DNA from: an uncultured Verrucomicrobiae bacterium
Lineage (GTDB): Bacteria > Verrucomicrobiota > Verrucomicrobiia > Chthoniobacterales > Chthoniobacteraceae
Direction of reading: 5' to 3'
Length of the DNA stretch: 64,000 bases
Assembly: GCA_963836755.1 (NCBI GenBank)
Contig: CAWIKF010000001.1
Location: forward strand, 640,001-704,000
This document shows, piece by piece, positions 5,608-63,728 of this stretch. Position numbers and translations under genes: made by a program. The notes under the pieces are model-generated. The model did no database searches. It was not told where the DNA came from and saw only the letters and a list, made by a program, of their open reading frames with translations. The number at the start of each line of letters is the position of its first letter. Positions within the stretch are counted from its first letter, which is position 1.

Positions 5608-5953
5608 GTCATCAGAAAGCGCTCTCGCATCGTCGGAAACCGGTCTCACGTCATCGGAAACCGACCTCGCGTCATCGGAAACCGGTCTCGCGTCGTCGGA
5701 AACCGGTCTCGCATCGTCGGAAACCAGTCTCGCATCATCGGAAACCAGTCTCGCATCATCGGAAGCCGGTCTCGCATCGTCGGAAACCGGTCTCGCATCA
5801 TCGGAAACCAGTCTCGCATCGTCGGAAACCGGTCTCGCATCATCAGAAACCGGTCCCGCGTCATCGGAAACCCCTCTGATGCCATCGGAAATCACTTTCA
5901 GGCTATCGCAAACCGCTTTAAGCTCATCGGAGACCAAATCCGCCATCGGAAAC
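5608..5953. repeat. 21-bp tandem array #1 (~16 units, consensus RTCRTCGGAAACCGGTCTCGC)
   Basis: Units start at 5608, 5629, 5650 ... 5923; near-identical on the left, degenerate on the right. Confidence 0.95.
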
Positions 5954-10929: not shown

Positions 10930-10962
10930 CGCCACGCGAAGGCTGCGGATAGCATCGCCGGC

Positions 10963-12792
10963 TTGAACGCGGAAGCTTTCATCACGTGGGCGCTCGATTC
11001 ATCCCGCTCCACCGAGGAGCGCTACACGACGCTGCTGCTCGTCGAGCGCGGTGTCGATTTTTGGAACAGCCATCATAACACCGGCGTTTATCGAAACTGG
11101 TGCCAGCAAAGCGAGGAACAGCGCCAGCGTCGACTGAATCCCGCCTTTGATCCACGCTACTCGGAGGAGGACCTTGTGCGCGCGTGCGAGATGCTTCCAA
11201 AAATCAATACGTGGTATCACCACGGATACAGTCAGCGGCCGCTCCGCGACTTGACGGCCTTCGGATTCCTCACGGAAATGGAAAGCATGGGCATCAACAA
11301 CAGCGAAGTCACTGATCTCACGCCGCTGGCGAGGATCACTGCGCTTCACACGTTGGATTTTAGTAGCGCGTTTTGCGATGACTTCAGCCCGCTTGCGCGC
11401 TGCCTGGGCTTGCGCAATCTCAATCTTTCCATCGGTGTGCGATGGCCGGATGTCACCGGCCTCGAAGCACTGGAGGAGATCGAAACGCTCTCGCTCGTCG
11501 GCAATCTGCTCGCCTTCGCGCCCGGCGTGGCATGGCCCAACGTCCGGCGCGGCACGCTCGTGTGCAGTCCGCTTTGCGCGCGCAATGTCGATGCGCTCCC
11601 TTTTTTTCCACGGTGCGAATTCCTAACGCTCGCGGGCGTGGATCGTCTCGACGGCATCGAACGCTACGCACCGCGCCTGCGCAACCTCACGCTCACTGGC
11701 CCCGTTCGCAGCCTTGCGCCGCTCGCATCCTTGTCAAAACTGACCTGGCTTTCCTATGGGGGCGACCGTCCGCGCGACGTCTCACCGCTGGCGCGTCTGC
11801 CGCAGCTTCACGCCGTGATTTTCAGCGCCTCACCTGATTTCCAGCATCCCGCGAAGCCGCGCGATTACTGCCCGCTGGCAGCCGCGCCCGCCTTGCGGGA
11901 ACTCACCGTCCTCGGTTGTCCGCCCGTGGAAATGGAAGTCGCCGCCCTCAAGGCCGGCCTTCCGCCCTGCGATGATCTCTGGCTCGCGGAGTCGCCACGC
12001 TCCATCCCACCGCTGCGGTTCATTGTCGCTCCCACGAACAAAGCACCTCGGCGCGCCTCGCACCATCGCGCACCAGGCGAGCCGGATTTGGCCGATACCG
12101 GCGTCCGCACTTGCGAAGGCCTCTGGGTGAAGGACTACGCCGCCCGCATCGTTCGCGAACGTCTCGGCCATGACGAATGGGGCACCGTCACCGCCAATGG
12201 CGAGTTTCGCACCGTCATGGCCACCGTTGAGTCTTTCGACATCGTGGAAAAATTCCGCGAAATCGTCGAGGCCATCCGCTTCGTGCTCGCCAGCCTCCGG
12301 CACGACTATCATGCAAGCGTCATGATCGCCCTCCGCGTCCCGCCGCCCAAGGCGACTCCCGCGCAGCAACAACTCGAGGAACAATTTCGAAACGCCCAGG
12401 ACCGTGCCGACTTTGAGCAGCGCCAGCGCGACGATGCCGAGTATCTGGAAAAACTTCACCTCCACGAGCTCGCGCAGCAGGAGGGCGATCCCGTCAAACC
12501 CGAGGAATATGCCCCCGCCGACCCCGAGCCACCGCTCGTGCCTCCATGGGAACAAGAAGACGACGAGGAGGAAGATGACAGTCACAGCGGAGACATCGGC
12601 ATCGCCATTAAAAAGAAACCTGACCCTCCGCCATCCTGGTCCGACGACGAACATCCGCTCGCCGATAACTACCGCCTTCTGGCCACCCTCACTTTGGGCG
12701 AGCTATGGTGCCTCCCGCACCAACGCGACATCGCCCTCTATCTCATGCACCGCGCCCCCGACGAGGAAATCCCCGAGGAGCCAAAGCCTTAG
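10963..12792 (+). CDS. Leucine-rich-repeat protein with acidic C-terminal region
   Basis: Repeated DLTPLARI.AL..L / DVSPLARLPQL motifs; 609-aa ORF; TTG start uncertain. Confidence 0.7.
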   Translation: MNAEAFITWALDSSRSTEERYTTLLLVERGVDFWNSHHNTGVYRNWCQQSEEQRQRRLNPAFDPRYSEEDLVRACEMLPKINTWYHHGYSQRPLRDLTAFGFLTEMESMGINNSEVTDLTPLARITALHTLDFSSAFCDDFSPLARCLGLRNLNLSIGVRWPDVTGLEALEEIETLSLVGNLLAFAPGVAWPNVRRGTLVCSPLCARNVDALPFFPRCEFLTLAGVDRLDGIERYAPRLRNLTLTGPVRSLAPLASLSKLTWLSYGGDRPRDVSPLARLPQLHAVIFSASPDFQHPAKPRDYCPLAAAPALRELTVLGCPPVEMEVAALKAGLPPCDDLWLAESPRSIPPLRFIVAPTNKAPRRASHHRAPGEPDLADTGVRTCEGLWVKDYAARIVRERLGHDEWGTVTANGEFRTVMATVESFDIVEKFREIVEAIRFVLASLRHDYHASVMIALRVPPPKATPAQQQLEEQFRNAQDRADFEQRQRDDAEYLEKLHLHELAQQEGDPVKPEEYAPADPEPPLVPPWEQEDDEEEDDSHSGDIGIAIKKKPDPPPSWSDDEHPLADNYRLLATLTLGELWCLPHQRDIALYLMHRAPDEEIPEEPKP

Positions 12793-12961
12793 CGCAACGT
12801 TGGCGTAAGCTCCAGGACAAGCACTATCGCGGCAAGCGCGAGTAGAAGGGGATCGCCGCGACGGATAATTGTCTCACCGATACTCATAACGCATTGAGCA
12901 TGCGACAACGCAACGCCTGAACGCTGCCAGTCATATTCCAGCTTTGGCAGGAGAAAGCGAA

Positions 12962-12968
12962 GCCTAAC
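12962..12968 (-). other. attC R'-like core GTTAGGC (remnant)
   Basis: Minus strand CTTC-GTTAGGC, 18 bp after the stop of ORF 12987..13418. Confidence 0.35.
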
Positions 12969-12986
12969 GAAGCTAGGTCGTCGGAT

Positions 12987-13418
12987 TCATCGCAAATCTT
13001 GAGCTGAAACAGCAATTTCTCCTAAGTAGTTGCCGGCGGTATCACGGTAAACGTAATGCATCTCAACACCGTGGTCACGAAAACTGGCAAGTTGCGGACT
13101 AGTCTTATAACTGTTCACTACTGTCGGGCGTAATGCCTTGATGAGACCTTCTACATTGACTCCTTTGAATAAGACACCAGAAACCGTGTAGAGATACGTG
13201 AATCGCTTTCCTGGACCTGGCGATGTCGAATCGAGCCGCGTATATTTGTCGACTTGCATTGGTAGCTTCGCGTTGAGTTGCGATGATGTCTCCACGAGCG
13301 CACGATCAAAGGCTGTCTCGCGCTGGTGATCGAAATACGACTGCACTGCTACCTTGCCAATGACTATCCCAACTATGCCCGCGACTAATTTCACGCAACC
13401 AGATAGCCGAGCTTTCAT
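12987..13418 (-). CDS. Hypothetical membrane-anchored protein (cassette-like)
   Basis: N-terminal TM; LNAKLPMQVDKYTRLD..Y.Y and Y.YRD..G pattern; AT-richer than flanks. Confidence 0.75.
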   Translation of the reverse strand: MKARLSGCVKLVAGIVGIVIGKVAVQSYFDHQRETAFDRALVETSSQLNAKLPMQVDKYTRLDSTSPGPGKRFTYLYTVSGVLFKGVNVEGLIKALRPTVVNSYKTSPQLASFRDHGVEMHYVYRDTAGNYLGEIAVSAQDLR

Positions 13419-13442
13419 GTTAGCTGCATCGCATGGTTGCGC
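13419..13442 (-). other. Left half (R''-L'') of an attC-like site
   Basis: 20/24 identical to 59640-59663; minus strand GCGCAAC-catgc-GATGCAGC-TAAC abuts the ATG of the next gene. Confidence 0.6.
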
Positions 13443-13496
13443 GCGTCATGCCTGGACTGCAGCCGCTCCCGCGGACTTTTAGTGACCATCCGTGCT

Positions 13497-14540
13497 TTAC
13501 CACGAAGAAGTCATGAACGTTGCCGGTGCAGGCCACCTGGCCTTGTTCTCCTCGGAAGCTGCAAAGATCGCTTGCTTGGCCGTGAGTGCTTTGACCAAGG
13601 CCTCAAACTCCGCCCCACTTCCGGACATCTCCACCTTCCACTCGTCATCCTTTTCATCGGGAGCGGCTGGCATCTTTCGGGCATGGAGCTTCACGGCCCC
13701 GGACTCTGTCGAGATCAGTTGGAACTCAGTCGTTGCCCCTTCGACGTCCGGCAATTTCTTGGGCATTGCAAACGAGACAAGGGTGTGACGGAGAACGTCC
13801 TCATAAGTCTGCGTGCGCCACTCCTTCGAAAGAAGAGCCATGCCGCGTCTTCCCGACATTTCTACAATATCGAATGAAAGATTCCGATCGCCCTCGTAGA
13901 ACGTGGATGTGAGTAGCGAGCGTTCCCAACTGGTAAAACGCCTTTGCTGGAGAGAATAGGTCACTCGGAGATTTCCCATGTCAAAGATAAGCCTCGCAGG
14001 CGAGCCAGCCAGGCTGAGATCAAAATCCACACAGTGACCCTCGTGAATACGGATCAGATCGTTGGACTGCAATCCCGCCACATGGCCGGCCTTGATTTCG
14101 TTCGCTGCGAATTCATTGTCTGCCAGATTCCGATAATTACCATTTTTGCCCCGTTCGAACGCTTCTCCATATCCTCCGGAGCTGATGTGGTATTCGAGCA
14201 CGATATAGCGCGCATCATCGCTGATCGCCGCGTTCGTGATATAAGTCGCCGGCATCGCGAGAAAGGTTCTCTTTCCGGTTTTTCGATTGAGGATCCATGC
14301 CTCAGCCGGCTCGTGCACAACATCCGTATCTCCACGAAGCTCCACGATGATGTCTCCATTCTTGGACGCAACCTTGCTGAAAAGTTTTAGAGTCAGAGTA
14401 GGATCCGGCTCCGATTGCCCCGCTCCGGCAGGCATGGCCGCCACGAGGAATGCTACAACAAAAAGCACCACCGTGCCGGCAAAGCCGCGTGGCATACTCC
14501 ACGGGCCCGTGCCGACTTCCATCGCATTGCTAGGTCTCAT
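13497..14540 (-). CDS. Hypothetical exported protein
   Basis: 347-aa ORF with signal-peptide-like segment; start uncertain. Confidence 0.6.
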   Translation of the reverse strand: MRPSNAMEVGTGPWSMPRGFAGTVVLFVVAFLVAAMPAGAGQSEPDPTLTLKLFSKVASKNGDIIVELRGDTDVVHEPAEAWILNRKTGKRTFLAMPATYITNAAISDDARYIVLEYHISSGGYGEAFERGKNGNYRNLADNEFAANEIKAGHVAGLQSNDLIRIHEGHCVDFDLSLAGSPARLIFDMGNLRVTYSLQQRRFTSWERSLLTSTFYEGDRNLSFDIVEMSGRRGMALLSKEWRTQTYEDVLRHTLVSFAMPKKLPDVEGATTEFQLISTESGAVKLHARKMPAAPDEKDDEWKVEMSGSGAEFEALVKALTAKQAIFAASEENKARWPAPATFMTSSW

Positions 14541-14915
14541 GTTTGGAGATGAGTTTCCAGACGGAAGTCCGTGCGACCCTTCTTAATGAATGGGAAAAGG
14601 TTCGTTCCATAAACATCCGTCAAGGAAACGCCGAAGTTGGTTTCGAGCAGACTGATAAGATTCCGGTTGGTAGGTAAGCTTCTCGTGTAGCCGTAGGTGA
14701 CGCAATCCATGTCGAGGGGACCACGCAGCGAAAGATCAGAACTCCAGTCCTGAAGCATTACCATTATTCAGCATTAACATTCCCAGCAGTCTTTGTGTAG
14801 GGTGAGACATAGGGACATTCATAAGCACCATCATGGTAATCTCCGATGCCCTTGTAACCGGGCCACTTGGTTCGCTGCCGCTTCCTAGTTTTTTTAATTG
14901 TAGTCGTTTATCCAT
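14537..14915 (-). pseudogene. Frameshifted, truncated gene, possibly uracil-DNA-glycosylase-like
   Basis: Three frames join to MDKRLQLKKL..RQRTKWPGYKGIGDYHDGAYECPYVSPYTKTAGNVNAE/MVMLQDWSS..PTNRNL..VYGTNLFPFIK; family call from recognition only. Confidence 0.55.
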
Positions 14916-14953
14916 AAGTGCGTGAGGCACAGGCCTAGCAAGAAAAGCCCTCT

Positions 14954-15643
14954 CTACCCGCCGACCGTGATGCTCACCGGCTTACTCCAGACGCCGACCT
15001 GCGCGTCGCCGACGATGTAGATGCCGCGATAGGTCCACTTCGTGGGCGTGGCGGGCAGGGGGGTGGTGTCGGTGTAGCCGGCGGTGGTGTCGTTGGCTAG
15101 GAAGATGAAACCTTTGCCGTCGCGATCGACTTCGAGGCGGATCATATCGAGGAATTTGCTGTTCCCACCCCAGCCCCAGTCGAGGAAAACGGTGTTGCCT
15201 TTGAGGATGGCTTTAAAGTCTGGCTGGATGGTGGACAGATCGGGGCCGGTTTGCTCGGCGCCTTCCAGGCCAAGGATGATGCCAATGGCGGGAGTGTAGT
15301 TTTTGTGAGTCTTGATGGCATTTGCCAGCGCGAGGAAGCGGGTGAGGATGCCGGCGGGCACCGAGGGAGGGAAGGCAGCGTGCTTCACGGGGATGGCCGG
15401 TTCCGTGCCGCTTTGGCCCGAGAGAGCGAGGCCTTTCCAAGCTGTCCACTGCGGCCCGGCGGAGCCCATGGTTTTGGCAAAGGTGAGAAGTTCGCGGTAA
15501 TAGGTTGCATCGGCGGCCTGCTGGGTGACGTCGGCTGCCGCGAGATTGAAAAGGGCGACGTAGCCACCGATGTTGTCGCGGAATTGCTCGAATTCGGTCG
15601 CTTTGCCGTCTTCGGTGTCGGAGAGGAAGTAATGTTTGGGCAT
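14954..15643 (-). CDS. Uncharacterised protein: helical N-domain + C-terminal FN3/Ig-like domain
   Basis: 229 aa; C-terminal W..LEVDR..F.FLA.DT..Y.D..P..W.YR..Y..G.WS..VSITV pattern; no signal peptide. Confidence 0.8.
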   Translation of the reverse strand: MPKHYFLSDTEDGKATEFEQFRDNIGGYVALFNLAAADVTQQAADATYYRELLTFAKTMGSAGPQWTAWKGLALSGQSGTEPAIPVKHAAFPPSVPAGILTRFLALANAIKTHKNYTPAIGIILGLEGAEQTGPDLSTIQPDFKAILKGNTVFLDWGWGGNSKFLDMIRLEVDRDGKGFIFLANDTTAGYTDTTPLPATPTKWTYRGIYIVGDAQVGVWSKPVSITVGG

Positions 15644-15771
15644 AATTTAGGGTGTTCTGTTTTGTTCACTGCGGGTTTCTACCCGGGAAAAGCGGCCCCG
15701 CTGAGCGTATGCCAGCGAACAAAAGACGGTTTTCCAGAGTAAAGTGGTGTTTTTCCCCGTTCAAAGCCCGC

Positions 15772-15990
15772 TCCTTGGAGGTTCCAAGGATGACTGGTGA
15801 CGTTCCACGCACGTCCGTGGAGGTTCCAAGGAGATGCGTGCAGGTTCCATGGACATCCTTGGGACCTCCAGGAACATCCATGGGAACCGCCAGGAAGTCC
15901 GTGCAGGTCCCCCGCACGTCCGCGGACGTTGGAAAACTGCCCGTGGAAGTTCGAAGAATGCCTTGGCAAGCTCCAAGGACGTCCTTGGAG
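15772..15990. repeat. 21-bp tandem array #2 (10 degenerate units plus a partial)
   Basis: Units at 15772+21n, e.g. TCCTTGGAGGTTCCAAGGATG and TCCGTGGAGGTTCCAAGGAGA; unit 1 is the palindrome TCCTTGGA-ggt-TCCAAGGA. Confidence 0.85.
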
Positions 15991-16303
15991 AATGGAAGGA
16001 GCGCCCGATTTGCGCACAAAACGCCAGAAAACCGCGGCTTTGGAGAAAGCGTAGAAAGCGCACAAAAAGCCGCCAGTGGAGCCGCCAAACCGTGGGGAAC
16101 CTCGCATCGCGAAGACGTGCCTAACAAAAGCGCTTTCACGATGGCAAGCGAATTTTTAACTCTTGTTTAAATTCTTTTTTTTCGCCGATGCGGCGGACAA
16201 ATCTCCGATCCTCGCCTTTATATAATGCGAAAAAGTTGTGTGAAAGTTCGCCGGCACATCCCTCTCCACAAAGTCGCGGGAGAGCTATACGATGCGCGGC
16301 TCC

Positions 16304-17239
16304 ATGAAAAATCCGCTGGGAAAAATTGCCGTCGTCGGCGCGGGGGCGGTCGGCTGTTACTATGGCGCGAAGCTGGCGCGCGCGGGCGCTGAGGTGCATT
16401 TTTTGATGCGGAGCGATCTGGCGGCGGTGCGCGAAAATGGGTTGCAGATCCGGTCGCCGGACGGGGATTTTCTTTTGGAAAAAGTGCGCGCGCACGGCTC
16501 GACGGAGGAGATCGGGGCGAGCGATATCGTGCTGATCGCGCTGAAGGCGACGGCGAATGAGGCGCTCGAAAAACTGCTCCCGCCGCTGCTGCATGAGCGG
16601 ACGGTTTTGGTGACGTTGCAGAACGGGCTCGGCAACGAGGAGTTCCTCGCGGCGCGTTTCGGCGCGGAGCGGGTGCTCGGCGGCTTGTGCTTTGTTTGTT
16701 TAAATCGTGTTGACCACGGTGTGATCGCGCATTTCGGCCACGGGACGCTGTCGATCGGCGAATATGGCCGCGCGCCGCAGCCGCGCACGCGCGAGCTCGT
16801 CGCGGCATTTTGCGAGGCGGGCGTGGACGCGAAGGTTGTGGAAAACCTGATCACGGAGCGCTGGCGGAAGCTGGTCTGGAATATTCCTTTCAACGGCCTC
16901 GGCATTGCCGCGCGCGCCGATGTCGCGCAGGTGCTGGCCGATGACGGCTTGCAAAAGCTCGCGCGCGATTTGATGGCGGAAGTGATCGCGGCCGCGAATG
17001 CGCTCGGGCACACGATTCCGGCCGATTTCGCGGATTTTCAAATCGAGCGCAGCTGGCCGATGGGCGCGTATCATTCGTCGAGCCAGATCGATTTTGAAAA
17101 CGGCCGCGCGGTCGAGGTGGAAGCGATCTGGGGCGAGCCGCTGCGCCAGGCGCGCCGCGGCGGGACGGACGCGCCGCGTCTTGAAACGCTTTACGTTTTG
17201 CTGAAAAAGTTGACGCAGTCGCATGAACGCAACGCCTGA
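16304..17239 (+). CDS. panE: 2-dehydropantoate 2-reductase
   Basis: GAGAVG, LQNGLGNEE, WRKLVWNIPFN, SSQID, E.EAI.G. Confidence 0.9.
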   Translation: MKNPLGKIAVVGAGAVGCYYGAKLARAGAEVHFLMRSDLAAVRENGLQIRSPDGDFLLEKVRAHGSTEEIGASDIVLIALKATANEALEKLLPPLLHERTVLVTLQNGLGNEEFLAARFGAERVLGGLCFVCLNRVDHGVIAHFGHGTLSIGEYGRAPQPRTRELVAAFCEAGVDAKVVENLITERWRKLVWNIPFNGLGIAARADVAQVLADDGLQKLARDLMAEVIAAANALGHTIPADFADFQIERSWPMGAYHSSSQIDFENGRAVEVEAIWGEPLRQARRGGTDAPRLETLYVLLKKLTQSHERNA

Positions 17240-28412: not shown

Positions 28413-28506
28413 CCGTCAGGGACTATGGATCGAAGGCAGACAAACCCCGCCAGGGCCGGAAGGCAGCAACGGTAGTCAGACTTTCCCTGCCGTAGCTCCC
28501 TGGCGG
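28413..28506 (+). ncRNA. ffs: Signal recognition particle (4.5S) RNA
   Basis: Domain IV motif GCCAGGGCCGGAAGGCAGCAAC; closing stem CCGTCAGGGA/TCCCTGGCGG. Confidence 0.88.
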
Positions 28507-28582
28507 CTTCTTCGCAAAACGGCTGCGCGGCGTCATTTTTATTTCAGCAAGCCCATTATATAACCTACAGTTCTCAGACTCT

Positions 28583-58731: not shown

Positions 58732-59303
58732 AGCCAGATGCCTGGTAGGAGAGGCCGGGGGAGGGGTGGAATCCATGGGTTTGAACGAGTAAACAGGCTG
58801 CCCCAGCCGAGACTGCCACGCGACGGGACGAGCTCGCAAGCCCGGACTGCCCCCGTTTCCGAACCCGCCCATAAACCGCATAAAAACCGCGAGCCTGCAA
58901 TATTACATGAAGCGGATGACATATCGCACGACGATCGTGCAGTATTACATCGTCACCATGCAGTGCTACATGACGACCGTGCAGTATTAGATCGCGACCA
59001 TGTTGTGCTGCATGACGACCGTGCAGTATTACACGACGACCATGTAGTGCTACATGGAGACCGCGCAGTATTACATGGCGACCATGCAGTGCTACATGAT
59101 GACCGTGCAGTATTACACGACGACCATGTAGTGCTACATGAAGGCGGCGCAGTATTACACGATGACCATGCAGTGCTACATGGAGACCGTGCAGTATTAC
59201 ATGGCGACCATGTAGTATTACATGGTGACCGTGCAGTATGACATTGCCGGACTTTTTGACCGCATCACGCCCATGTTACTCTGTAAACCGTCCGCTCTGG
59301 CCT
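58732..59303. mobile_element. 572-bp inserted segment carrying 21-bp array #3; diverged copy of 62802-63313
   Basis: Interrupts a gene precisely; AG dinucleotide at both junctions; no transposase or terminal inverted repeats. Confidence 0.7.
58897..59245. repeat. 21-bp tandem array #3 (16 units plus a partial; 42-bp higher-order period)
   Basis: Alternating GCAGTATTACATGGCGACCAT / GTAGTGCTACATGGAGACCGT-type units. Confidence 0.95.
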
Positions 59304-62297: not shown

Positions 62298-62846
62298 TTA
62301 TTGCGGCCCCGACTGCTCGATATCGAGCAGCTTCGGCCCGACGCGATGGCCCACGATTTTCATGGACCAAAAGAGCATCGAGTAAAAGCCGGCGACCGCC
62401 ACCAAAGTGACACCGGCCGCGGCCCAATGGTGAGCGCGCATGCGACTGAGCCTTGGCATAAAGGCAATCATCCCGAAAAGGCTTAGCACCACGATCACCG
62501 CATCGAAAGAAGCGCGCTGCCAGTAGCTGCCGCCCAGATGCAGCCACATCCCGAATTCATCGAACGTGAGCGCCATCCCGAAGCCATACAAAAACGCCAC
62601 CCATTTTCTGCCCGACTCACCCAGCGGCACGAACAAAAGGAACGCCCCCACCGCGGAGAGCAGAAAAATCCCGTAATTGAGATGGTGAACGTGCGTCCCA
62701 CCCAGATGCAGAAAAAAGTCCGGCATCTTCTTTGTCATGATCAGGATCACCAGCACCCTCGAAGCAATGAAAGTCAGCAAAAAAGTGGTGAACACCACGC
62801 GAGCGAGATGCCTGGTAGGCGAGGCCGGGGGAGGGGTGGAATCCAT
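62298..62846 (-). CDS. Integral membrane protein of unknown function
   Basis: GGTHVHHLNYGI and ALTFDEFGMWLHL motifs; ATG of MDSTPPP at 62846. Confidence 0.8.
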   Translation of the reverse strand: MDSTPPPASPTRHLARVVFTTFLLTFIASRVLVILIMTKKMPDFFLHLGGTHVHHLNYGIFLLSAVGAFLLFVPLGESGRKWVAFLYGFGMALTFDEFGMWLHLGGSYWQRASFDAVIVVLSLFGMIAFMPRLSRMRAHHWAAAGVTLVAVAGFYSMLFWSMKIVGHRVGPKLLDIEQSGPQ

Positions 62847-62966
62847 GGATTTGAACAAGTAAACAGCCTGCCCTCGCCGAGACTGCCACGCAACGCGAGG
62901 CGCGCGCAAGCCCGGACTGCCCCCGTTTCCGAACCCGCCCATAAAGCGCATAAAAACCGCGAGCCT

Positions 62967-63253
62967 GCAGTATTACATGAAGCGGATGACATATCACACG
63001 ACGACCGTGCAGTATTACATCGTCACCATGCTTGTGCTGCATGGCGACCGTGCAGTATTACACGACGACCATGTAGTGCTACATGGAGACCGTGCAGTAT
63101 TACATGGCGACCATGCAGTGCTACATGATGACCGTGCAGTATTACATCGCGACCATGTTGTGCTGCATGACGACCGCGCAGTATCACATGACGACCATGT
63201 AGTGCTACATGGAGACCGTGCAGTATTACATGGCGACCATGCAGTATGACATT
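62967..63253. repeat. 21-bp tandem array #4 (13 units plus a partial), same family as #3
   Basis: Same units as 58897-59245; one 22-bp unit at 63030. Confidence 0.95.
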
Positions 63254-63436
63254 CGTCGGATCCTTTTTGACTGCATCAGGCGGGTTTACTCTGTTGACCG
63301 TCTGATCCGGTCTGCGTGCGGGGAATCACATTGGCCGCCCCGCGGCATTTCTGCTAAGCCTCCGGCAGGACGATCTCCGCATGCTCACGGAACAGATAAC
63401 GCCATCGACCAGGCCCACGCCAAAGTCCGTGCTCTC

Positions 63437-63503
63437 GGCGAGCATCGATTTGAAAAAATCCGTCCTCCGCCAAGATGGGCGAGCATCGATTTGAAAAAAT
63501 CCG
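63437..63503. repeat. 26-bp direct repeat, two copies 41 bp apart
   Basis: GGCGAGCATCGATTTGAAAAAATCCG at 63437 and 63478. Confidence 0.85.
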
Positions 63504-63728
63504 GCCTCCCCGAGCCTCGGCGCCACCCTATTATATAATCGCGAAAAAGTCCCATACCTCCGGCGGAATTTAGCTCGACCGCCGAGGCCGCACTCCATTA
63601 CACGGCGGCATGACGGCGAGGAAGCCAGCAGCAGCCAAAGAGCGGACAAAAATAGGCGAAACTTCTTTCGCCTTTAATTACGAACCTTCGCCTAAATCTC
63701 GTTAGGCCTAGCAACACAGTCCAAAGTG

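Follow-up and report, generated by a model that had tools for sequence, protein, structure and literature searches.

Tandem arrays of constant 21-bp period and variable sequence upstream of an unnamed family of helical and fibronectin type III proteins in Verrucomicrobiota

What is a tandem array of degenerate, palindrome-like 21-bp units doing in front of a gene that belongs to no named family? The question is raised by a stretch of 64,000 nucleotides, referred to here as the window, from an uncultured Verrucomicrobiae bacterium (assembly GCA_963836755.1, contig CAWIKF010000001.1, positions 640,001 to 704,000; G000:C1:640001-704000 in our numbering). An initial annotation, made from the letters alone, described a gene of 229 amino acids (aa) with a repeat array upstream and proposed either a protein with its own phased binding array, perhaps mobile, or a heptad-repeat protein with a partner. 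We followed this up in the whole genome (G000, 3.18 Mb), in its two congeners (G001 and G002), and in homologous loci elsewhere. The feature is real and strongly non-random, and no tested family matches it; the architecture appears to be new, with a candidate mechanism. The locus contains the following features.

14954..15643, minus strand: 229-aa gene of an unnamed family, with a helical N-terminal domain (residues ~1-130, predicted antiparallel homodimer interface) and a C-terminal fibronectin type III (FN3) domain
15644..15771, minus strand: spacer or leader, 129 bp between the array and the ATG
15734..15743, minus strand: array-end motif TTTACTCTGG, lineage restricted and -10-like, 39 bp from the last dyad centre
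15772..16002, no strand: 11 units of 21 bp arranged head to tail (dyad consensus 8-3-8-2), an array judged to be non-coding
16027..16034, no strand: far arm of an 8-bp inverted pair (near arm 15727-15734), at chance level
15666..16139, minus strand: 157-aa open reading frame (ORF) with a GTG start running through the array, open most likely because the repeat is poor in stops rather than as a conserved gene

The array begins 129 bp from the ATG, matching the earlier estimate of about 130 bp, and counts 11 units (15772-16002) where ten had been described. Each unit is identical to the consensus at 12 to 19 of 21 positions, and identity at a lag of 21 is 0.59, versus a maximum of 0.37 among 300 dinucleotide shuffles (best of 59 lags). 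The dyad symmetry claimed for the units holds for their consensus but not unit by unit: near-perfect arms occur in two units only (8/8 and 7/8), and the other nine pair at 1 to 6 of 8 positions. Because the units are contiguous and have no unique spacers, this is not a CRISPR repeat-spacer layout. The 8-bp inverted pair said to bracket the array lies where it was placed but is at chance level, as a match of this length is reached by 7.6% of mismatched flank pairs; across 62 arrays, the longest exact inverted match in 70-nucleotide flanks averages 5.9 in true and 5.9 in mismatched pairs. One arm of the pair overlaps the conserved end motif at 15734-15743. Besides this motif, the leader holds a short GC-rich inverted repeat, which recurs in L001 and L210, the two homologue loci closest to this one, and, ahead of the start codon, a stretch rich in A and C. 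A metagenome contig spans 15589-15956 with one difference and may stem from the sample behind the genome assembly.

Is the pairing of gene and array peculiar to this locus? From 234 confirmed loci we took the best 80 and left out 2 at contig ends; 70 of the resulting 78 have at least 400 bp of upstream sequence. With an array called as a period of 21 or 42 within 700 bp upstream of the gene, 56 of these 70 loci have one, versus 0/77 downstream, 0/59 far-upstream, and 0/60 far-downstream control windows. The lack of any excess of period-21 arrays beside homologues was the refuting condition set beforehand; the excess found is overwhelming. A second set of loci, from whole-genome searches, has the array upstream in 22 of 27 (L086 counted after its orientation was corrected) and in none downstream, and among 12 metagenome loci found, 8 of the 10 examined have it. 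In G000, all eight profile-matched paralogues have an upstream array, versus 71 of 2,629 roughly called genes; three further matches in the genome fall below the array threshold upstream, with strand uncertain for two of them. The gene and the array are thus linked. The family itself is patchily distributed, being present in 6 of 30 relatives and in 3 of 150 genomes drawn from the phylum, and genomes that have it hold 1 to 10 matches, usually more than one. The gene is neither single-copy nor syntenically fixed, with no common synteny among homologue loci, and the protein type is, as initially suggested, unannotated and multicopy.

Two further observations concern the surroundings of such genes. 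A 159-aa gene of similar style (G000:C2:1046063-1046542, minus strand) has a 21-bp array downstream, the sole such exception seen. Tandem repeats of 8 bp lie upstream of L005, L006, L015, L016, L022, L028, and L046, beside the 21-bp array or replacing it.

What is kept from locus to locus is the period, while the sequence is free. Genome scans with Tandem Repeats Finder and a scan of our own found 21 to be the dominant tandem-repeat period throughout G000; 72 strong regions, less 5 in long coding repeats, gave 67 arrays, with a period of 21 or 42 in 58 and of 41 in 9, and with lengths mostly of 200 to 360 bp. Consensus units differ between loci. Their similarity tracks that of the proteins (Mantel rho 0.20, 0/999 permutations), and below 55% protein identity it is about 10.3 of 21 positions, versus 9.8 for shuffled units. 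A dyad score of at least 14/21 is found in 59% of 61 consensus units and in 19% of shuffled ones. Within arrays, the identity of units falls with the distance between them, as in tandem amplification.

Could a free sequence of fixed period encode a protein? Twenty-one base pairs are seven codons, and ORF 15666-16139 had been read as a heptad-repeat partner of the FN3 protein. The ORF exists and stops, as described, 22 bp before the ATG of the 229-aa gene; a gene-strand frame is open in 59 of 61 arrays, and three arrays lie in frame inside genes. However, all three gene-strand frames are open across the window array, and of 45 dyad arrays, 29 are open in the first frame, 32 in the second, and 25 in the third, so that no frame is common to the arrays. 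In the frame of the ORF, differences between units fall on the three codon positions 1,041, 1,115, and 1,076 times, and the synonymous share is 0.279 versus 0.266 expected; one other frame has a share of 0.328 versus 0.275, without a third-position excess. The homologous frame contains 10 stops in L029, all frames are closed in L062 and L063, periods of 41 bp in some gene-linked arrays break the reading frame, and 5 of the 21 gene-array modules in G000 have no open frame. There is no peptide-level selection on the array, and the heptad reading, largely refuted by these tests, strikes us as highly improbable.

A different possibility is that the array acts as RNA, as a structured 5' leader or small RNA that is bound by the protein (in autoregulation, in antitermination, or as a type III-like antitoxin) and is possibly translatable. 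The leader does fold better than shuffles (z -4.8), the loose consensus is oriented to the gene, 37 of 45 having C at the centre of the dyad, and the gene strand is stop-poor in the homologue and G000 arrays alike. A tandem array upstream of one gene is also the layout given for type III toxin-antitoxin systems in the parts of PMC3401426 used here. Complementarity, however, is 0.46-0.51 at all distances of at least 4 bp and no higher within a unit than between distant units; local hairpins are therefore not selected. Of 59 homologue loci, 5 have a terminator-like site in the interval from array to gene, the same frequency as in the upstream control, and the window has none. No Rfam family matches the array, the sole match in the window being a bacterial small signal recognition particle RNA at 28414-28508. 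Moreover, the period, like the phase of the end motif described below, matches B-DNA, and sigma70-like boxes are visible by eye between array and gene in two G000 modules. On balance, we find an RNA role unlikely.

If the array works as DNA, the adjacent protein is the most likely candidate to read it. An AlphaFold2 (AF2) model of the 229-aa protein from a 95-row alignment has a predicted local distance difference test (pLDDT) score of 96, with helices at residues 11-28, 36-75 (40 residues), 99-111, and 118-124 and a beta-sandwich at 133-229. This sandwich superposes on FN3 domains with VIA-align Z scores of 10-11 (best 11.3), a root mean square deviation of 2-3 (2.2), and about 90 aligned residues, and Foldseek matches the model to FN3 domains as well, so that the C-terminal domain has a predicted fibronectin type III fold. 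The helical N-half noted from the letters agrees with the AF2 model, and the FN3/Ig-like C-half with the model and both fold comparisons; by eye the N terminus shows no hydrophobic stretch, in keeping with the claim that there is no signal peptide. The protein has no match in Pfam, NCBIfam, PADLOC, PDB sequences, or the named clusters of the ESM Atlas. Its relatives number 359 in the 90% collection and 1,021 among 50% representatives; homologue records point to Verrucomicrobiota, the closest being Chthoniobacter-like.

A two-copy model supports a homodimer, with a score of 0.83 versus 0.00 for the best of three controls, pLDDT of at least 87, and agreement between runs in at least 70% of contacts; among solved structures, 20 of 30 pairs and 1 of 23 single chains attain this mark, rates that are only rough for this alignment. 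The predicted interface pairs the long helix in antiparallel fashion (residues 48-75), together with residues 84-101. Such a two-fold dimer would fit dyad sites. The N-terminal domain modelled alone from a single sequence has a pLDDT of 39. Conserved basic residues are few (K70, R102, K111, R174, and R206). Many homologues (P0018, P0028, P0035, P0050, P0052, P0141, P0165, and P0167) have an extra ~60 aa ahead of the usual start, a stretch in which W, D, and P abound (WD...F.WDDPN-like); the gene in the window has no such extension, and a stop lies two codons upstream. Longer fused forms have weak evidence, with one 488-aa match among 8,000 scored candidates.

The reading that we tentatively favour, as a good possibility short of a likely one, is that the array does not code for protein but serves as a helix-phased lattice on which a two-fold protein, probably the product of the adjacent gene, docks; it would be part of a portable module that controls itself and its cargo and sheds solo copies. 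Its double-stranded DNA would offer a lattice of dyad sites whose axes recur every 10.5 bp, the unit itself recurring after two helical turns; a homodimer, most likely the one encoded just downstream, would dock there and respond to spacing and shape to a greater extent than to sequence. The gene with its leader, the end motif, and the array would together make up a portable expression module, inserted between core genes and usually placed at the head of a variable set of genes for exported proteins. Protein loaded onto the array would govern how strongly the adjacent -10-like site drives both gene and cargo. Units would drift and be homogenised within each array, and copies that lack the gene would spread as non-autonomous repeats through an enzyme acting in trans. 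The initial proposal of a phased binding array, perhaps mobile, fits the linkage and the patchy locations; the fold and homodimer are modelled, whereas DNA binding, the identity of the binder, promoter activity, regulation, and the route of mobility are features that we only infer.

The end motif provides the most direct sign that the phase of the double helix matters. TTACTCTG occurs at 31 sites in G000, and an array lies within 80 bp of 19 of these versus 0.27 expected; in G002 an array lies near 11 of 13 TTTACTCTGK sites. Distances from motif to dyad lattice cluster modulo 10.5 bp and not 21: the phase is 7-8 in 10 of 14 arrays that precede the motif (R 0.64, ~6 of 8 families) and 2.5-5.5 in 8 of 9 arrays that follow it, in a post hoc test in which related copies are not independent and 5 weak-dyad cases were excluded. 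The motif is kept in L001 and L210, where the would-be -35 is not; a canonical sigma70 promoter at this place was accordingly rejected, since the TTGAAC-17-TACTCT fit of the window is lost in both. A promoter scanner returned no promoter in 14500-16400. The motif is a candidate -10 box, element end, or target. In other genera, none of 29 sampled motif sites has an array (one site per genome, mostly in genomes without the family).

Several results weigh against a lattice read by the neighbouring protein, beginning with the post hoc nature of the phase test. As a family-wide feature the end motif had to be dropped, being found in 3 of 60 homologue loci and thus lineage restricted; it faces either into or away from the array, often with no gene downstream, and a TTG...TAnnnT promoter between array and gene is present in only 2 of 61 loci. 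Fourteen of the 70 homologues have no period-21 call, some having a period of 8 instead, which is the top period in five loci. The protein is slightly acidic (pI 5.6, net charge -3; family median -2), and whole-model fold searches returned only FN3/Ig-like matches, FN3 rows being so dominant that the N-terminal domain was barely probed. Paralogues matching at E values of 1e-73 to 1e-118 have clearly different units. Curvature from phased A-tracts was also rejected, as homologue arrays show no 10.5-bp W/WW signal (z -1.9 and -2.1). A pure double-stranded lattice does not account for the stop-poor gene strand, on which the 59 of 61 arrays with an open frame compare with 44±3 after column shuffling (42 versus 38 expected on the opposite strand) and on which stop triplets in the 21 G000 modules number 75 versus 136. 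Finally, 43 of the 67 G000 arrays have no adjoining family gene, and the possession of a common architecture by several families lacking detectable mutual homology may point to a common host factor or generating process and not to cognate binding.

The last two points depend on what the arrays adjoin. In G000, 24 lie beside family-type genes, 40 are solo in intergenic regions, and 3 are inside ORFs. Gene-linked arrays precede several groups of proteins, mostly of 205-350 aa and helical-looking by sequence, with or without an FN3-like end. These groups are joined by weak transitive matches only, and a single superfamily for all array-linked genes was rejected for want of profile support outside one subfamily; since the groups were picked for having arrays, they add no independent statistics. 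Unrelated helical families with arrays, together with a family protein that is not basic, would suit an operator lattice for some other protein, such as an upstream LuxR-type regulator or a host nucleoid protein, with the helical/FN3 protein as the first regulated gene of a surface-protein cluster. The main recurring neighbour is indeed a small LuxR/GerE helix-turn-helix gene, upstream of the array and co-oriented, in 11 of 78 loci (L009, L011, L023, L026, L029, L032, L036, L042, L049, L058, and L065; three confirmed by Pfam). The other 67 loci, however, fall outside this cluster, panE is what lies upstream of the window array, and the units are too different for one sequence-specific regulator. 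This makes an operator for another protein quite unlikely in our estimation.

Solo arrays often have the same unit as a gene-linked array, and array families comprise 2-6 related copies. Solo arrays in the window are as follows.

5609..5936, no strand: solo 21-bp array of a unit family other than that of 15772..16002
58886..59247, no strand: solo 42-bp (2x21) array with the TTACTCTG end motif, one of three copies
62966..63252, no strand: second solo copy of the same 42-bp family, with end motif

The unit of the first recurs at G000:C2:1007.3k, again solo, and upstream of a helical gene at C4:55.9k. At 58736-59290 and 62805-63295, the two 42-bp copies have ~200 bp of common flank, in which an ATG and ~14 codons run in frame into unrelated downstream sequence; these look like modules that lost their gene. 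Just past the end motif of the 62966 array, the 271 bp at 63437-63707 repeat, at 95% identity, the upstream flank of a module at G000:C2:1471k together with part of its 41-bp array. Truncated and internally deleted copies of modules occur in G000: some partial modules retain the array, the leader, and the first 35 or 7 codons, and in another form an array is fused to the 3' end of a gene.

The in-frame arrays lie within housekeeping genes, namely alaS, ispG, and a resistance-nodulation-division (RND) permease gene. The alaS ORF (L191, G000:C1:58953-62516, minus strand, 1,187 aa) contains an in-frame 21-bp array and other short inserts, as well as an in-frame domain of a tyrosine transposase associated with repetitive extragenic palindromes (REPs) at residues 639-778; at the site of its array, G002 has a different 21-bp array and G001 an unrelated insert. 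In ispG (L192, G000:C2:1020285-1022471, minus strand), the array reads as NGPxVPS heptads and is joined by a second in-frame palindromic insert, both of which are missing from G001 and G002. The piece of RND permease ORF (L193, G000:C2:798660-800453, minus strand) holds a 14-unit array, and no orthologue of the gene was found in either congener.

Such copies raise the question of whether the arrays are simply selfish minisatellites, similar to REPs, bacterial interspersed mosaic elements (BIMEs), or Rickettsia palindromic elements (RPEs), that a host or REP-associated Y1 transposase copies and slippage expands, with the helical genes as passengers and nothing binding the array to any purpose. 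The 40 solo and 3 in-frame arrays, the decay of identity with distance inside arrays, and the truncated module copies all accord with this. At the congener sites of four solo arrays there is no array, including the site after window position 5581 in L120, and one unit family of these four is present elsewhere in G002. In addition, G000 encodes two Y1 domains of the REP-associated tyrosine transposase (RAYT) type, one ~3 kb from an array and the other inside the array-holding alaS, and in-frame palindromic inserts are known for RPE and REP from the parts of PMC3733652 consulted here. Selfish spread does not explain, however, why arrays are upstream only (56/70 versus 0/77 downstream) or why one period runs through many unrelated unit sequences. 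Terminal inverted repeats are lacking, the window unit has no GTAG tag, and among the 25 largest neighbour clusters of the 78 loci no transposase, integrase, or reverse transcriptase is evident by eye. We regard a purely selfish origin as fairly unlikely, and return to the lattice module and where it sits.

The module in the window is placed at the panE end of an island with these features.

10930..16291, no strand: island of ~5.4 kb between a CBS-domain gene and panE, missing from G001 and G002
10963..12792, plus strand: 609-aa leucine-rich-repeat ORF inside the island
12987..13418, minus strand: 143-aa ORF, co-oriented, with a hydrophobic N terminus by eye and a sub-threshold Pfam match only
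13497..14540, minus strand: 347-aa ORF, downstream of and co-oriented with the 229-aa gene; its N terminus begins with a stretch that looks hydrophobic by eye

The core/accessory boundary proposed for this site is borne out by the direct adjacency of the CBS-domain gene and panE in both congeners, which also supplies the empty sites sought in relatives. The 347-aa ORF has no Pfam or NCBIfam match. A second block of array, gene, and cargo, of 3.5 kb, has a 30-bp gap in its place in G002. Modules are patchy and non-orthologous in location. Filled and empty sites, compared for a target-site duplication between congeners that are ~77% identical in genes, have intergenic junctions that do not align. 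Contigs from three DNA runs of one study do not contain the island joint, and phage, plasmid, and viral collections gave no match. Cargo of this kind recurs: the next co-oriented ORF is at least 120 aa long in 46 of 73 loci and has a hydrophobic N terminus in 33 of these 46, versus 28% of G000 genes, by a crude rule based on the first ATG and hydropathy.

How does the module compare with known systems? BrickBuilt elements (23-nucleotide repeats) and MITEPgRS/464 (41-nucleotide repeats) of Porphyromonas gingivalis (PMC4596501) are among the closest systems known. In common with the arrays here, they have spacer-less tandem intergenic units in many copies per genome, filled and empty sites, a conserved flanking tail, promoter-like segments, and frequent proximity to secretion-linked genes (PMC4596501). 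BrickBuilt, however, has a single unit sequence, terminal inverted repeats resembling those of IS5, and target duplications, and no gene family goes with it (PMC4596501), whereas here there are dozens of unit sequences of one period, no terminal inverted repeats, and a tight link between an upstream array and a gene family. Like miniature inverted-repeat transposable elements (MITEs), the arrays are multicopy (families of 2-6), non-coding, and polymorphic, with empty congener sites; terminal inverted repeats are absent from the 62 arrays with flank comparisons (5.9 versus 5.9).

REP/BIME-RAYT systems (REPtrons) and Rickettsia RPEs are likewise described, in the sections of PMC3733652 that concern them, as palindromic units that form clusters, spread in a lineage-specific manner, and insert in frame in housekeeping genes, tRNA synthetases included. 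REPs in those sections are hairpins tagged with GTAG or CGTC, mostly downstream of genes and flanking a Y1 transposase gene (PMC3733652), unlike the contiguous 21-bp lattices here, which are upstream of a gene without a transposase match. By eye, GTAG is absent from the window consensus and from most units printed, being internal to one unit family, and CGTC occurs in some units, including those of the window, at no fixed position. The array-adjacent gene has no Y1_Tnp match, and the two Y1 domains of G000 lie elsewhere, from where they may act in trans.

The type III toxin-antitoxin systems toxIN, cptIN, and tenpIN resemble the module in having a tandem array directly upstream of a single gene; toxIN and cptIN, as far as the cited parts of PMC3401426 describe them, combine 1.9-5.6 repeats of 31-62 nucleotides with the gene for an RNase toxin, which a terminator precedes. 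The module, in contrast, has ~11 units of 21 bp, no terminator, and a helical and FN3 protein. No ToxN/AbiQ-type endoribonuclease was matched in Pfam, NCBIfam, or PADLOC, and fold searches were FN3-dominated with the N-terminal domain barely probed.

Plasmid arrays offer another likeness. In sopC-SopB of F and in plasmid centromere and iteron arrays, about a dozen phased dyad repeats lie beside the gene for a dimeric protein. The arrays here differ in that they occur many times over in the chromosome and do not conserve their unit sequence, and there is no match to the ParB family, no ParA-like neighbour in the window by Pfam, and no match to a plasmid, phage, or viral contig. By analogy, then, the module may work like a sopC or iteron array beside its gene and spread like BrickBuilt or REP/RPE elements, and it fails the defining tests of MITEs, REP/RAYT, type III toxin-antitoxin systems, sopC, and the DUF6261 family considered next. 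A survey of prokaryotic satellites describes no such class in the sections consulted and treats transposed non-coding satellites as rare (PMC6749651). The gene-array link is undescribed in the full-text literature searched; supplements, which may list such arrays, and most subscription papers lie outside it.

DUF6261 (PF19775) bears on a broader proposal, which we consider possible but doubtful: that a small helical dimer measures DNA in steps of two turns, builds or maintains its own 21-bp lattice beside the end motif regardless of sequence, and controls and disperses surface-protein cassettes, with the Verrucomicrobiota helical/FN3 loci and Bacteroidota DUF6261 loci as parallel cases and the solo and in-frame arrays as footprints. 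None of 95 aligned homologues matches DUF6261, and G000 has no match over cut-off. An hhalign comparison with a two-sequence DUF6261 alignment gave a probability of 0.4%, from an alignment so shallow that remote structural kinship is possible. Two DUF6261 genes in one Verrucomicrobiota genome have no array by the same detector.

The sequence of known gene-adjacent repeat arrays is maintained because it is read, by a protein or by an RNA structure. Across this family of more than 1,000 clusters, arrays retain a 21-bp step, a length of ~250 bp, and a place upstream while their sequence is free, which suggests a ruler of a new kind, either a helical-phase binder or a writer of 21-bp repeats. With 67 copies in the genome, a place in islands of exported proteins, and heptad inserts in genes such as ispG and alaS, the arrays shape both genome and protein evolution in these lineages, and a large unannotated family gains a function that can be tested.

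Two minor features of the genome adjoin this material. Large paralogous ORFs with the common N-terminal start MKYKQSFALKLR adjoin 21-bp arrays at G000:C1:229.5k, C2:709k, and C2:1904.3k. A separate dispersed repeat of 60-130 bp, found at G000:C2:1266k-1480k, C1:618.1k, C1:699.6k, and C1:704.4k, lies between the cargo genes in several islands, array-module islands among them, and resembles the junction repeats of cassettes.

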